A DNA stretch of 64,000 nt from an uncultured Actinomycetes bacterium (GTDB lineage Bacteria > Actinomycetota > Thermoleophilia > Gaiellales > JAICJC01): contig CAWGSU010000005.1 in the NCBI GenBank assembly GCA_963825325.1, positions 119,736 through 183,735 of the forward strand, given 5' to 3'. The notes under the pieces are model-generated. The model did no database searches and was not told the origin of the DNA. It was given only the letters and a program-made list of their open reading frames with translations. Numbering within the stretch: position 1 is the stretch's first letter; each line of letters begins with the position of its first letter. Positions 54,680 to 64,000 of the stretch are shown here, piece after piece. The position numbers were made by a program, and so were the translations under genes.

Positions 54680-55942
54680 ATGGCGGAGACGGGCGCGTCC
54701 GGGGGCTACCGAGCACTGCTCCGGGTGCCGGGCTACCCGGCGCTGATCTCGGCGGTCGCGCTCTCGCGGCTGGCCAACTCGATGAGCCAGGTGGGCGTTG
54801 TCATCTACCTGCTCGAGGCGACGCACAGCCCGGCCATCGCGGGCGCGGGGGCGGCGGCGCAGCTCCTGCCCGGCATCCTCACCGGGCCGTTCGTCGGCGC
54901 CTGGCTCGACCGCACCCATGCGCGCGTGCGCGGCATCGTCGCCACCCAGCTCCTGCGGGCGACGCTGCTCTTCGCGGTCGTCGGCTGCGGCCAGCTCCTG
55001 CACGCGCCCGCCGCCGTGCTCCTGCTGCTGCTCGGCGGCCTGGGCGCGACCTTCCCGATCCCGACGGTCGGCTTCCGCTCCCTGATCCCGGTCGCCGTCC
55101 CGCGGCCGCTCTGGCATCAGGCCAACGCGGCCGACTCGATCTCGTTCGACTCGGCGTTCGTCATCGGTCCGGCGCTGGCCGGAGCAACGGTGACGCTGGT
55201 GGGCGCGACGTGGGCGATCGGCCTGCAGGGAGTGGCGACGCTCGTGGCCGGCGCCGTCGCCTCGCAGGTGCGGGAGCCCGGCGGGCGCGTGATCGAGACC
55301 GAGCCGCCGCTCGAGGCGGTGGTCGCCGGGCTGCGCGCCGTCGTCTCGCACACCCAGCTGCGCGCCACGATGGCGCTGATGGTCGTCTCCGGCCTCGGCT
55401 ACGGCTGCTTCATTATCGGCCTGCCGCTGTGGGCGCGCGGCACGCTGCACATGTCGGCCGGCGTGGCTGGGTGGATGTGGGCGGCGGCCTCGGTGGGCTC
55501 GGTGATCGGCGGGCTCGTCTACGGCTGGCGGCCGCCGCCGGGGACGCCCGCCCGCCACGTGGTCGTGTTCACGGCCCTGTTCGGGCTGCCGCTCCTGCTC
55601 GTGCCGCTCGTCGCCTCGCTCTGGCTCGGGATCGCGTGCATGTTCGTCTCGGGCCTGTGCTCGGCGCCGTTCATCATCGCGATGTTCTCCATTCGCCAGG
55701 GCGCGGTCGACACGCGCCTGCACGGCCGCATCTTCGCGATCACGGTGTCGGTCAACGCCGCCGGCACGCCCGCGGGCGCGTTCCTGGCCGGGCTGCTCGT
55801 GACCCACATCGGCGTGCACCGGCTGCTCTTCGGCGCCGGCCTGGGCCAGCTGCTGGCCGCGGCCGTGGCCGGGTTCCTGCTGCGGCAAGGCGACGACGTG
55901 CCCGCCCTCGGGCTGGCCGAGCCCGAGCAGGCGGCCGCCTAA
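54680..55942 (+). CDS. MFS transporter
   Basis: About 12 TM helices, 'GAWLDR' motif A-like; CATGAT-N7-ATG supports the 54680 start. Confidence 0.85.
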   Translation: MAETGASGGYRALLRVPGYPALISAVALSRLANSMSQVGVVIYLLEATHSPAIAGAGAAAQLLPGILTGPFVGAWLDRTHARVRGIVATQLLRATLLFAVVGCGQLLHAPAAVLLLLLGGLGATFPIPTVGFRSLIPVAVPRPLWHQANAADSISFDSAFVIGPALAGATVTLVGATWAIGLQGVATLVAGAVASQVREPGGRVIETEPPLEAVVAGLRAVVSHTQLRATMALMVVSGLGYGCFIIGLPLWARGTLHMSAGVAGWMWAAASVGSVIGGLVYGWRPPPGTPARHVVVFTALFGLPLLLVPLVASLWLGIACMFVSGLCSAPFIIAMFSIRQGAVDTRLHGRIFAITVSVNAAGTPAGAFLAGLLVTHIGVHRLLFGAGLGQLLAAAVAGFLLRQGDDVPALGLAEPEQAAA

Positions 55943-57138
55943 CCGCCCGCGACGACCGCGGTCAGCACCGCGATCGCGGCGGCCACGTCGGCCTCGGTGA
56001 CCGACTCGGCCGGGTTGTGGCTGATGCCGTCGCGGCAGCGCACGAAGAGCATCGCCACGGGCAGCACCTCGGCCATCACGGCCGCGTCGTGGCCGGCGCC
56101 GCTCGGAAGTGCCGGCGGATGAAGGCCAATTGACCGTGCTGCGGCGGCCAAGCGGCCGGCCAGTCTGCGGTCACAGGCGACCGAGCGCTCGTCGTGCACG
56201 ACTGCGATCGCCGCCTCGATCCCGCGCCGCTGCGACACCTCTTCGACGACCGCCCGGATGCCGGCGACGAGGTGGGCCTTGCGGGCGTCGTCAGGATGGC
56301 GGGCGTCCACCGACATCGTCACGCGGCCCGGGATCACGTTGGCGGCGCCGGGCGACACGGCGAGCTCCCCCACCGTCGCCACCGCCTCGCCGTCGTCGCG
56401 CGCCAGCCGCTCGGCCCCGAGCGCGATCGCGGCCGCTGCCGCGAGCGGGTCGCGGCGCAGCCGCATCGGCACCGTCCCGGCGTGCCCCGCGGTGCCGGTG
56501 AGCGTGATCGCGAGCTTCGTGCCGCCGGTGATCGCCGTCACGATGCCGAGCGGACTGCCGGCCACGTCGAGCACCGGCCCCTGCTCGATGTGCGGCTCGA
56601 TGTAGGCGACGGCGCCCGGGGGCGGGCCGGAGGCCGCGGGCGCCTGCGGGTTGCCGGCCAGGGCGATCGCCGAAGCGAGCGTCGCGCCCTCGGAGTCGGT
56701 CATCGCCGGGTCGGGCACGGGGCCGATACCGAGCAGGCCGCGGCTGGCGAAGTACGCCGTCGGGAAGCGCACGCCCTCCTCATCGCAGAACGCGATGACG
56801 GTGAGGTCGTGCGCGCGCTCGCGCTCGCGCAGCTCCTCGGCGCAGGCGATCCCGAGCAGGATCCCGAGCGTGCCGTCGTAGCGGCCGGCGTCGATCACCG
56901 TGTCGAAGTGCGACCCGATCATGATCGCGGGCCGCGGCGGGTCGCCGGCGAGCGTGCCGATCAGGTTCCCGACCCGGTCGACCCGGGTCGTGAGGCCTGC
57001 CCCGCGCATCCAGCCCTCGAGCAGGTCGCGGGCGGCGACGAGCGCCGGCGTGCCGTACCTGCGCGTGATCTCGCCCGGCCGCTCGCTGCAGGCGGCGAGC
57101 GCATCGGCCCGCTCCATCGTGCGCCGCGCCCCGGTCAC
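55939..57138 (-). CDS. M20 Zn-amidohydrolase (allantoate amidohydrolase / N-carbamoyl-amino-acid hydrolase)
   Basis: 'GSHFDTV..AGRYDG', 'DEEGVRF', 'EPHIEQG', 'GHAGTVPM', 'SGAGHDA', 'GISHNPAE'. Confidence 0.9.
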   Translation of the reverse strand: MTGARRTMERADALAACSERPGEITRRYGTPALVAARDLLEGWMRGAGLTTRVDRVGNLIGTLAGDPPRPAIMIGSHFDTVIDAGRYDGTLGILLGIACAEELRERERAHDLTVIAFCDEEGVRFPTAYFASRGLLGIGPVPDPAMTDSEGATLASAIALAGNPQAPAASGPPPGAVAYIEPHIEQGPVLDVAGSPLGIVTAITGGTKLAITLTGTAGHAGTVPMRLRRDPLAAAAAIALGAERLARDDGEAVATVGELAVSPGAANVIPGRVTMSVDARHPDDARKAHLVAGIRAVVEEVSQRRGIEAAIAVVHDERSVACDRRLAGRLAAAARSIGLHPPALPSGAGHDAAVMAEVLPVAMLFVRCRDGISHNPAESVTEADVAAAIAVLTAVVAGG

Positions 57139-63180: not shown

Positions 63181-63245
63181 AATCGGCCCGCGGAGCCGCG
63201 GGGCCGGTGTGCGCGACACCTCGAGGTGCAAGCTTGGAACGTCAG

Positions 63246-64000
63246 ATGCTCGTCGCCGACAGGCTCGCGCGTCTCCTCCAGCGTGAGGGGGCGGAGTTCG
63301 TGGTCGGATTCCCCGAGAACCGGCTGCTCGACTCCGCCTCCGCGCTGGGCATGCGGCCGATCATCACTCGCACCGAGCGGGTGGCGGTCAACATCGCCGA
63401 CGGGTTCGCCCGCGCGAGCGACGGCGAGCGCATCGCCCCCTGCGTGACCCAGTACGGGCCCGGGGCCGAGGCGGCGTTCGCGGCGGTCGCACAGGCCTAT
63501 GGCGACCGGAGCCCGATCCTGCTCATCCCGGGCGAGCACGACTGCGCGAAGCAGGACTCGGCGCCGAATCTGCGCACCGAGCAGGCCTACCGCCCGGTGA
63601 CCCGCTTCGCCGCGACCGTGAACGACGCTCGGCGCGCGCCCGACGTGTTCCGGCGGGCGCTGCACGCGCTGCGCGTCGTCCGCGACGGCCCCGTCCTGGT
63701 GGCAGTCGCAAACGACGTCCTGAACGCGCCGGCCGGCGACGCCGACTGGGACATCGGCGGCTCGGCGCCGCGGCGCTCGCAGGCCGCCCCGGCCGACGTC
63801 GCCGAGACGGTGCGCATCCTCACCGAGGCGTCCGACCCGGTCATCCTGGCCGGGCAGGGGGTGCTCTACGCAGGCGCCTGCGCCGAGCTCGTGCGTCTGG
63901 CCGAGCGCACCGGCGTGCCGGTCGCGACCACCCTGAACGGCAAGAGCGCCTTTCCCGAGAACCACCCGCTCGCGCTCGGCACCGCCGCTCGCACGCGCCC
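63246..64000 (+). CDS. 3'-partial thiamine-pyrophosphate-dependent enzyme (ALS/decarboxylase family)
   Basis: MLVADRLARLLQREGAEFVVGFP...RTERVAVNIADGFAR...QYGPG; 'LAGQGV'; no stop before the window end, so absent from the ORF track. Confidence 0.88.
   Translation, partial: MLVADRLARLLQREGAEFVVGFPENRLLDSASALGMRPIITRTERVAVNIADGFARASDGERIAPCVTQYGPGAEAAFAAVAQAYGDRSPILLIPGEHDCAKQDSAPNLRTEQAYRPVTRFAATVNDARRAPDVFRRALHALRVVRDGPVLVAVANDVLNAPAGDADWDIGGSAPRRSQAAPADVAETVRILTEASDPVILAGQGVLYAGACAELVRLAERTGVPVATTLNGKSAFPENHPLALGTAARTR

Follow-up and report, generated by a model that had tools for sequence, protein, structure and literature searches.

The industrial production of amino acids relies heavily on enzyme trios that combine a hydantoinase with a racemase and a carbamoylase. 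To our knowledge, the physiological substrates of HyuH-type L-hydantoinases have never been established, and the same largely holds for the natural substrates of the trios. The hyu cluster of Arthrobacter aurescens DSM 3747 has the gene order hyuP-hyuA-hyuH-hyuC. The allantoin-to-oxalurate route is represented by PucH/PucF/PucG of Bacillus subtilis and HpxB/HpxA/HpxK/HpxJ of Klebsiella. In the arginine transaminase pathway of Pseudomonas, AruH and AruI pair an aminotransferase with a thiamine pyrophosphate (TPP)-dependent 2-oxo-acid decarboxylase that resembles acetolactate synthase (ALS); the NCBIfam model of AruI is PRK07524. Ergothioneine utilization involves ErtD and ErtE, a hydantoin-5-propionate amidohydrolase and an N-carbamoyl-L-glutamate amidohydrolase, whose substrates carry an acidic side chain (NCBIfam NF058538/9, NF058540). 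Here, we describe a gene cluster at the right-hand end of a 64,000-nucleotide stretch of DNA (the window; positions 119736-183735 of contig C5) from a soil actinobacterium, whose nearest relatives are Gaiellales/Thermoleophilia metagenome-assembled genomes and whose own 4.16-Mb genome has 74% G+C and is 96.9% complete. With a probability that we put at roughly 60%, it is a TetR-controlled, hyu-type catabolic cluster whose substrate is not allantoin but another cyclic ureide, a 5-monosubstituted hydantoin, the resulting amino acid then being passed to transamination and TPP-enzyme/reductase steps.

The cluster shares with hyu a two-Cys racemase, a cyclic amidohydrolase of the non-ATP, L-selective kind with the loop indels of HyuH, and an M20 hydrolase of the L-N-carbamoylase type. 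It departs from hyu in the side-chain site of the M20 enzyme, which reads G-T-K and is not hydrophobic, in its TetR control and divergent operons, and in the addition of a HisC-like aminotransferase, a PRK06154 TPP enzyme, a short-chain dehydrogenase/reductase (SDR) and a ferredoxin-FrhB protein. An NCS1-type hydantoin permease (hyuP/Mhp1) was not found at the locus, the only transporter there being an EntS-like member of the major facilitator superfamily (MFS). As in the Puc and Hpx systems, an amidohydrolase, a racemase, an M20 ureido-amidohydrolase and an aminotransferase are encoded together; unlike them, the cluster lacks the signature residues of allantoinase and allantoate amidohydrolase (AAH), its aminotransferase is of the HisC type and the genome has no purine or urate genes, while the Puc/Hpx route has no counterpart of the FrhB protein or the PRK06154 enzyme. 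The likeness to ErtD/ErtE lies in the combination of a hydantoinase with an M20 carbamoylase, with x-T-R in ErtE against G-T-K here; however, the scores against the Ert equivalogs are far below cutoff (286 vs 650 for the hydantoinase and 343 vs 520 for the M20 enzyme), and the form of the locus seen here, termed variant A below, is without ergothionase, thiourocanate hydratase and desulfurase genes.

Because raw lists of open reading frames (ORFs) are useless at 74% G+C, genes were called by the phase of third-position GC (GC3 frame analysis) and then scanned against Pfam and NCBIfam. Lettered A to K along the window, those of the cluster form two divergent operons spanning window positions 55939-64000 and running on to about 64874, past the window end. 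The (-) operon, transcribed G-F-E-D, encodes a classical SDR oxidoreductase (gene G, 59500..60267; Pfam adh_short/adh_short_C2, with no NCBIfam equivalog reached), a HisC-like class I/II aminotransferase dependent on pyridoxal phosphate (gene F, 58373..59500; Pfam Aminotran_1_2), a ferredoxin-FrhB fusion protein (gene E, 57135..58376; Pfam FrhB_FdhB_N and FrhB_FdhB_C) and an amidase of the M20 hydantoinase/carbamoylase family (gene D, 55939..57117; TIGR01879, PDB 3N5F). The (+) operon, H-I-J-K, encodes a TetR-family regulator with a BetI-type C-terminal domain (gene H, 60339..60992; Pfam TetR_N and TetR_C_6), a cyclic amidohydrolase of predicted L-hydantoinase type (gene I, 60989..62377; metal ligands, PDB 1GKR), an Asp/Glu/hydantoin-family racemase (gene J, 62374..63105; Pfam Asp_Glu_race) and a TPP-dependent enzyme of the PRK06154 family (gene K, 63138..64000, on to window-equivalent 64874; NF004807). 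Four-base GTGA stop/start overlaps at E/F, H/I and I/J and a one-base overlap at G/F (TGATG) show translational coupling, and gene K begins 32 nt after gene J. Gene D is taken to start at ATG 57117, with alternatives at 57138 and 57189, and gene G at TTG 60267, where the alignment with the SDR of the second locus form (variant B, below) also begins, although GTG 60297 is possible. Every gene named in an earlier note on this DNA was recovered in its place by these frame and family analyses. The M20 gene, which that note had set beside TetR, proved to be the last gene of the divergent operon. To the right of the window, where the note had advised a look for further genes, the cluster closes with the rest of the TPP gene; beyond it lie 580 nt of gap, a GntR gene in divergent orientation and unrelated genes.

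The identity of the ring-opening enzyme is central to the choice between a hydantoin and allantoin. All binuclear-metal ligands (HxH, the carbamylated Lys, two His and Asp) are present in gene I, in the motifs DPHAHF, GFKAF, VHAES, IVHTS and VSDH, in alignment with 1GKR and with allantoinases. Among solved structures, the L-hydantoinase HyuH of Arthrobacter (1GKR) gives 304 bits and allantoinases 249-264 bits. Only one-residue gaps interrupt the alignment with 1GKR, which has a KEPGW/EKEPGW segment in common with gene I; relative to gene I, allantoinases have a deletion at EKEPGW and an insertion after the carbamyl-lysine motif. The allantoinase signature set used here comprised PLN, containing Asn94 of the Escherichia coli enzyme, PGR[T/S]xWEG and a short SDHSPxPPxxK loop. 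Controls from the same phylum were L079, in which uricase and HIUase genes lie directly upstream of the amidohydrolase gene, and L080, in which an M20 gene adjoins it. PLN(A/Q)xP, PGRTRWEGF and a short SDHSPCPPxMK loop are common to the E. coli, Bacillus (3HM7), L079 and L080 enzymes, and five allantoinases, two of them in-phylum and validated by context, carry the allantoinase versions of the signatures. These signatures were not found in gene I, which has HPL-TYPP, DPGHTEREDF and SDHCAYTIEEKEPGW instead, all kept in its orthologues. Kim et al. reportedly described a role for Asn94 in allantoin binding in 2009. The same residue is listed as an active-site hydrogen-bond partner in the E. coli allantoinase structure paper, according to which the specificities of hydantoinases and allantoinases are non-overlapping and determined by active-site loops (PMC9863593). 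Ser317 of allantoinase was considered as a further discriminator, being Cys in gene I, and was dropped as evidence because the variant-B hydantoinases keep Ser. The signatures and loops are evidence that this lineage, abundant among soil Gaiellales and annotated as 'allantoinase', is HyuH-like, which we count as new. The nearest relative of the hydantoinase outside the order (45% identical; L078, G189:C686:1-15000) lies in a long operon that also encodes two other amidohydrolases, an MR/MLE enolase-superfamily protein, GntR, an MFS transporter, two SDRs and a peptide ABC transporter, but neither a racemase nor an M20 enzyme; it represents a further uncharacterized locus for cyclic amides.

The M20 enzyme belongs by its score to the N-carbamoyl-L-amino-acid amidohydrolase family (TIGR01879, 356 bits against a cutoff of 204), and its best solved relative is the L-N-carbamoylase 3N5F of Geobacillus (251 bits, compared with 202 bits for the AAH 1Z2L). 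AAHs are characterized by a QxR motif that holds the second ureido group of allantoate (PMC13751858). In an ungapped stretch of alignment, this site reads Q-R-R in E. coli AAH, Q-S-R in the L080 AAH, L-I-W in the Geobacillus L-carbamoylase and G-T-K in gene D; the QxR motif was accordingly not found in gene D when aligned with the E. coli and L080 enzymes. The Lys of G-T-K is invariant in 10 orthologues. True ErtE proteins have I-T-R or I-R-R, and the nearest relatives of gene D outside its clade, three proteobacterial proteins of 43-46% identity, have A-T-R or A-R-R. Since the side-chain site of gene D holds a basic residue, as in AAH and ErtE, and that of the L-carbamoylase is hydrophobic, the sequence suggests a substrate with a polar or anionic rather than an aromatic side chain. 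Gene D is predicted to be an N-carbamoyl-L-amino-acid amidohydrolase. Gene J aligns at 149 bits with 3QVJ, whose deposited name is 'putative hydantoin racemase', and at 128 bits with the allantoin racemase 5LFD; both of its catalytic Cys residues (IACFGDPG and LACGGMA) are kept in the orthologues and fall where the mutant entry 3QVK has Ser. It is predicted to be a hydantoin (or allantoin) racemase.

The wider genome shows no purine-catabolic pathway. Uricase, OHCU decarboxylase and ureidoglycolate lyase gave no matches anywhere in it, and neither did allantoicase, in a search that had no positive control. For ureidoglycine aminohydrolase, the best genome-wide match to TIGR03214 reached 28 bits against a cutoff of 200. 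AAH is described as co-occurring with ureidoglycine aminohydrolase (PMC13751858); here, the expected partners are missing, there being no such aminohydrolase and the aminotransferase of the cluster being class I/II and HisC-like, not class V. The missing aminohydrolase was set aside as proof against an AAH, a transamination route having no need of it. By these searches, the genome is apparently without the steps before allantoin and after allantoate.

Taken together, the families suggest the following sequence of reactions. The racemase J would interconvert hydantoin enantiomers, the HyuH-like amidohydrolase I would open the ring to give an N-carbamoyl-L-amino acid, and the M20 amidase D would release the carbamoyl group as CO2 and NH3 to leave the L-amino acid. 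The HisC-like aminotransferase F could then convert the amino acid to a 2-oxo acid, which the ALS-like TPP enzyme K might decarboxylate, or cleave or ligate, on the model of AruH/AruI; the SDR G, and possibly the Zn-dependent alcohol dehydrogenase (Zn-ADH) encoded by gene A, would reduce or oxidize the carbonyl product. The ferredoxin-FrhB protein E, a presumed flavin/Fe-S oxidoreductase and possibly F420-linked, would move electrons for one of the steps. The steps assigned to J, I and D are predicted from family membership and intact active sites; those after D are inferred from gene linkage. The class of substrate, the sequence in which the later steps occur and the parts played by E, G and K are inferences as well.

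Each of the additional enzymes has its own affinities. Gene F scores 255 bits with the hisC model, below the cutoff of 276, and the housekeeping hisC lies on another contig (C6) and passes with 300 bits; gene F is therefore regarded as a dedicated paralogue. Its solved relatives are HisC 3FFH (165 bits) and the phenylalanine aminotransferase 4R2N of Mycobacterium tuberculosis (123 bits). At its full length of 578 aa (L003:74-1810), the product of gene K has the TPP_enzyme_N, _M and _C domains and, with 690.6 bits against a cutoff of 607 for NF004807, is by sequence a clear member of the uncharacterized PRK06154 equivalog family. That family occurs in 6/401 of the Pseudomonadota genomes sampled and in 0/400 of the other Actinomycetota genomes sampled. 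The solved structures closest to gene K are BbmA (184 bits), followed by glyoxylate carboligase and oxalyl-CoA decarboxylase at about 139 bits, and acetolactate synthases are also among them. An Ehrlich pathway, to which the earlier note had pointed, combines an aminotransferase with a decarboxylase of the pyruvate decarboxylase (PDC) or indolepyruvate decarboxylase (IPDC) type and an alcohol dehydrogenase. Gene K resembles ALS, Gcl and oxalyl-CoA decarboxylase, and its top matches include no PDC or IPDC model, so that the comparison is one of analogy and the cluster may function like an Ehrlich route without being a member. The likeness to AruH/AruI, an aminotransferase feeding an ALS-family TPP enzyme, is likewise an analogy, as gene K scores 177 bits against the AruI cutoff of 500 and the aminotransferases differ in class.

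Gene E, which has invariant Cys residues, joins one CxxCxxC...CP [4Fe-4S] ferredoxin motif to a flavin/Fe-S module with the cysteines of the FrhB type. Its AF2 model (pLDDT 90, pTM 0.92) has as its best Foldseek match 8RIU_B, a component of F420-reducing CO dehydrogenase (CODH), with an E value of 4e-20; 8RJA_E, Fsr, FrhB and HCAR are also among the best matches. In fold it is thus nearest to the F420-oxidoreductase modules found in the archaeal enzymes CO dehydrogenase, formylmethanofuran dehydrogenase, Fsr and Frh, and then to plant HCAR; a search of the ESM Atlas returned the same FrhB family. Gene E matches these modules (8RIU_B, 8RJA_E, the N-terminal half of Fsr, FrhB) and HCAR 5DQR in fold and in its combination of a ferredoxin with a flavin/Fe-S part, but differs from them in being bacterial, stand-alone, about 20% identical and placed in an aerobic-type catabolic cluster. 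The presence of a CofD/FbiA-like gene (G000:C1:264242-265142) suggests that the organism can make F420; this gene matches its model in two adjacent frames (172 + 116 bits), as would be expected from a frameshift in the genome itself or in its assembly. Homologues of gene E are found as well in phyla most of which lack F420. One database protein, P0029 (695 aa), carries Aminotran_1_2 and FrhB_N/C domains and is 82% identical to gene E; it arose either by natural fusion of the two genes, F and E, which overlap, or through a one-base assembly frameshift.

A search anchored on FrhB gave 53 loci. Ten related Gaiellales/Thermoleophilia assemblies (FrhB 80-94% identical) contain the same cluster in the same gene order, a recurrence that rules out chance juxtaposition, and the full set is kept in 9/9 of the full-length orthologous loci. 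In one locus (L029), cluster genes are frameshifted, with assembly errors the probable cause. In another (L022:905-3136), the racemase gene is followed by a gene for a 743-aa STAND NTPase (nSTAND3), and of the TPP gene a truncated remnant is left behind it; the insertion disrupted gene K, the last gene of the cluster.

The two operons share a control region of about 60 nt between G and H (60283..60346), delimited by alignment of 11 loci and presumed to hold the TetR operator and the promoters. In an intergenic sequence that is otherwise 65-91% identical, the blocks CCTCC[G/A]TCACAACGATTATGAT, GCAGTAAAGCAGG and TGTCAAC are invariant and contain overlapping -10-like hexamers, TATGAT and CATAAT, one per direction. 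Gene coupling, conservation and this shared block argue together for co-regulation of the two operons, which is thus supported at the sequence level; a lack of co-regulation was among the outcomes that the earlier note had said would refute its reading. The TetR gene starts at a CTG codon (60339-60341): the sequence for helix 1 begins ahead of the first canonical start, L008 and L010 have ATG at this position and L007 has TTG, and a strong Shine-Dalgarno-like run, GGGGAGAAGGA, precedes the codon. Standard ORF callers would shorten TetR by 26 residues, with the loss of part of DNA-binding helix 1.

The hydantoinase lineage extends beyond these loci and exists in two settings. It is common in the order and, at an identity of at least 71%, is found in 30/120 other genomes, a count that includes the unpublished genome G863, used here for nothing else. 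The 89-96% identical form, variant A, occurs in five genomes, all of the same genus, which with the source makes 6/17 genomes of the genus (5/16 of the others); the FrhB orthologue occurs in the identical five. Variant B, with a hydantoinase that is 72-78% identical, is present in about 24 genomes of two families, six of these genomes being of the same genus. Its order (loci L092-L099 in other Gaiellales genomes, e.g. L094:5842-13334) is SDR2-SDR1, divergent from M20'-TetR-hydantoinase-racemase-Zn-ADH-186-aa protein-~91-aa protein, the Zn-ADH having been identified by a PDB search. SDR1 is 62-66% identical to G, TetR 55-59%, the racemase 64-69% and M20' 38-43% to D. No genome among those sampled has variants A and B together. 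Because variant B keeps the hydantoinase signatures and, in other genera, has a TCACAAC[C/G]ATTATGAT block in the SDR|M20' intergenic region, adjoining the SDR start, both of which it has in common with variant A, the two are considered homologous loci under the same control logic. Variant A, confined to one genus, elaborates on a simpler core locus that occurs widely across the order with the same operator block. At the QxR site, M20' has M-A-G, M-S-G or F-A-G, with neither Gln nor a basic residue; M-A-G, which is without any polar or basic residue, was read in M20' partnered with a hydantoinase of 73-77% identity. AAH-like binding of allantoate is hard to envisage for such an enzyme, which speaks against allantoin as the substrate of the hydantoinase lineage as a whole. 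The nearest ESM Atlas clusters of the 186-aa protein are putative 2-thiouracil desulfurases (PF27735), a lead only, which hints at a thiohydantoin substrate. The source genome encodes a 49% identical homologue of this protein at an unlinked position (C3:77399-77932).

The most serious competitor to a hydantoin substrate is allantoin itself, metabolized through a transamination branch. In that scheme, J would racemize scavenged, racemic allantoin, I would open it to allantoate, D, as a variant AAH, would yield (S)-ureidoglycine, and F would replace the class-V enzymes PucG/HpxJ in forming oxalurate, leaving the TPP enzyme, SDR and FrhB protein to handle products at the oxalurate/glyoxylate level, for instance by Gcl-like or oxalyl-type decarboxylation followed by reduction. 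Several observations speak for it and so count against the hydantoin reading. Racemase, amidohydrolase, M20 enzyme and aminotransferase are the known allantoin-to-oxalurate set. Gene I narrowly passes the allantoinase equivalog TIGR03178 (364.5 bits, cutoff 357.85), and its clade is labelled 'allantoinase AllB' by all sources checked; other allantoinase models, on the other hand, are far from being reached (354 vs 631 and 283 vs 688 bits), and the PLN Asn and PGRTxWEG are replaced by HyuH-type loops. The top NCBIfam model for gene D is NF006775, 'allantoate amidohydrolase', at 449 bits, below its cutoff of 479. Among the proteobacterial relatives of D, the gene of one overlaps that of a class-V aminotransferase, a PucF/PucG-like pairing (L089), and another shares its locus with a racemase and with an amidohydrolase that has a ureidoglycolate lyase at its flank (L091). 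It may be that the Gln of QxR is not essential, and the exchange of Arg for Lys would be a conservative one; yet G-T-K stands against Q-S-R in the in-phylum AAH, and the M20 enzyme of variant B has M-A-G. The solved relatives nearest to gene J include the confirmed allantoin racemase 5LFD beside 3QVJ, and those of gene K include glyoxylate carboligase and oxalyl-CoA decarboxylase, although K is far below the Gcl models (194 vs 791 bits). Gene F is of the HisC type and not class V, and the genome makes no allantoin of its own; its lack of ureidoglycine aminohydrolase and ureidoglycolate lyase does not count against the allantoin scheme, because the route needs neither. We regard allantoin as unlikely, though with a real chance of being right, and the evidence from I, D and the genome-wide absences favours what the earlier note had proposed, a catabolic route for a hydantoin or cyclic ureide rather than ordinary allantoin use. 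The same note's remark that the window contains no uricase or other purine gene holds and extends to the 96.9%-complete genome.

Doubts of another kind concern the unity of the cluster. Only the core of SDR, M20 enzyme, TetR, hydantoinase and racemase might form the pathway, with the aminotransferase, FrhB and TPP genes inserted and serving an unrelated function. The widespread variant-B locus works without these three; gene K may be dispensable, since it is truncated behind the STAND-NTPase insertion in L022; and both the PRK06154 and FrhB families occur elsewhere without hydantoin genes. Attempts to read function from such contexts were not fruitful and likewise weigh against the proposed pathway: six proteobacterial PRK06154 members have unrelated, unconserved neighbours, and FrhB homologues of 50-57% identity from other phyla stand in varying, unrelated contexts (ABC transporter, GMC, DAO, BVMO, ferredoxin reductase, glyoxalase). 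As these neighbours are assorted flavoenzymes and transporters, members of the FrhB family would seem to act quite generally as redox partners or reductases when small molecules are catabolized. Against a core-only pathway, the sole M20 gene of variant A ends the translationally coupled SDR-aminotransferase-FrhB-M20 operon, so the hydrolase needed by the hydantoinase is expressed together with the aminotransferase and FrhB protein, only 32 nt separate gene K from the racemase gene within the TetR operon, and 9/9 full-length loci keep the set; we consider this alternative clearly improbable. A small biosynthetic cluster, in which carboligase, aminotransferase and reductases would make a non-proteinogenic amino acid or acyloin for export by the EntS-like MFS protein, is scarcely credible: the MFS transporter does resemble efflux proteins, but it is absent from L006, three of the genes encode hydrolytic or racemizing enzymes of a degradative module, and Pfam/NCBIfam scans of the locus found no genes for NRPS, PKS, ATP-grasp enzymes or other ligases. 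A final point against a catabolic role in hydantoin use is that no obvious uptake transporter was found at the locus, the only one, the EntS-like MFS protein, being variable among loci.

If the cluster does serve to degrade a hydantoin, a more specific picture can be drawn, which we think rather improbable as a whole. In it, the natural role of HyuH-type L-hydantoinases would be the degradation by Gaiellales of a 5-substituted hydantoin that is polar and may contain sulfur or oxygen, with a new F420/Fe-S-linked branch of amino-acid oxidation or with E acting earlier. On the first alternative, E would take electrons from the 2-oxo-acid step of the POX/ALS-like enzyme K, and the result would be a bacterial 2-oxo-acid:F420-type oxidoreductase assembled from non-OFOR parts. 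On the second, E would reduce an unsaturated hydantoin precursor, as dihydropyrimidine dehydrogenase does for pyrimidines.

To the left of the core lie genes of less certain membership. Gene C (54680..55942, (+); Pfam MFS_1/MFS_3) encodes the MFS transporter of EntS/2A0121 efflux type, with matches to NCBIfam 2A0121 and EntS far below cutoff, and is convergent with gene D; it does adjoin the cluster, as the earlier note had it, but is efflux-like and, being absent from the orthologous locus L006, is not part of the core. Gene B (54235..54618, (-); Pfam Glyoxalase), a Glyoxalase/VOC-fold protein, is a variable neighbour missing from L006 and L009. Gene A (53084..54229, (-); Pfam ADH_N and ADH_zinc_N) encodes a Zn-dependent medium-chain alcohol dehydrogenase whose NCBIfam matches (HpnZ-proposed/IolM/Tdh) are weak and all below cutoff; it is 86-94% identical in all full-length orthologous loci, follows directly after the M20 gene in L006 and is probably a peripheral, ninth gene on the (-) side. 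Directly further left (48088-53049), an inositol-type catabolic set encodes an IolD-like TPP enzyme, a GFO/IDH/MocA oxidoreductase, a DeoC/LacD-family aldolase and a 184-aa protein without a Pfam match, and remains syntenic with the cluster in related genomes. About 9-16 kb to the right of the window (L003:9646-17172, equivalent to C5:192445-199971), a peptide/opine-type ABC transporter operon comprises SBP_bac_5, two permeases and a fused double ATPase, followed by a cyclic amidohydrolase, which scores 190 bits with the allantoinase model, and an SDR; a further amidohydrolase paralogue lies at C5:240702-242045. The contig seems to be rich in catabolic genes for N-heterocycles or amides.

All parts of the cluster come from known families, and the trio is a known type of module. 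What is new is that the trio is joined by a HisC-type aminotransferase, a PRK06154 TPP enzyme and a bacterial FrhB protein, that the locus comes in two mutually exclusive forms under one operator, and that this gives hints on the natural substrates of L-hydantoinases. The trio is automatically annotated as an allantoin pathway despite failing several allantoin-specific sequence tests. Should allantoin nevertheless be the substrate, the cluster would document an allantoinase/AAH pair of divergent sequence along with a ureidoglycine aminotransferase of the HisC type. The TetR/operator pair could be used as a ligand sensor. The four extra enzymes in a defined regulon constrain the product amino acid, the bacterial FrhB and PRK06154 TPP families gain a testable metabolic context, and the two locus forms, in an abundant and poorly cultured soil order, provide a natural comparison for the search for the substrate.

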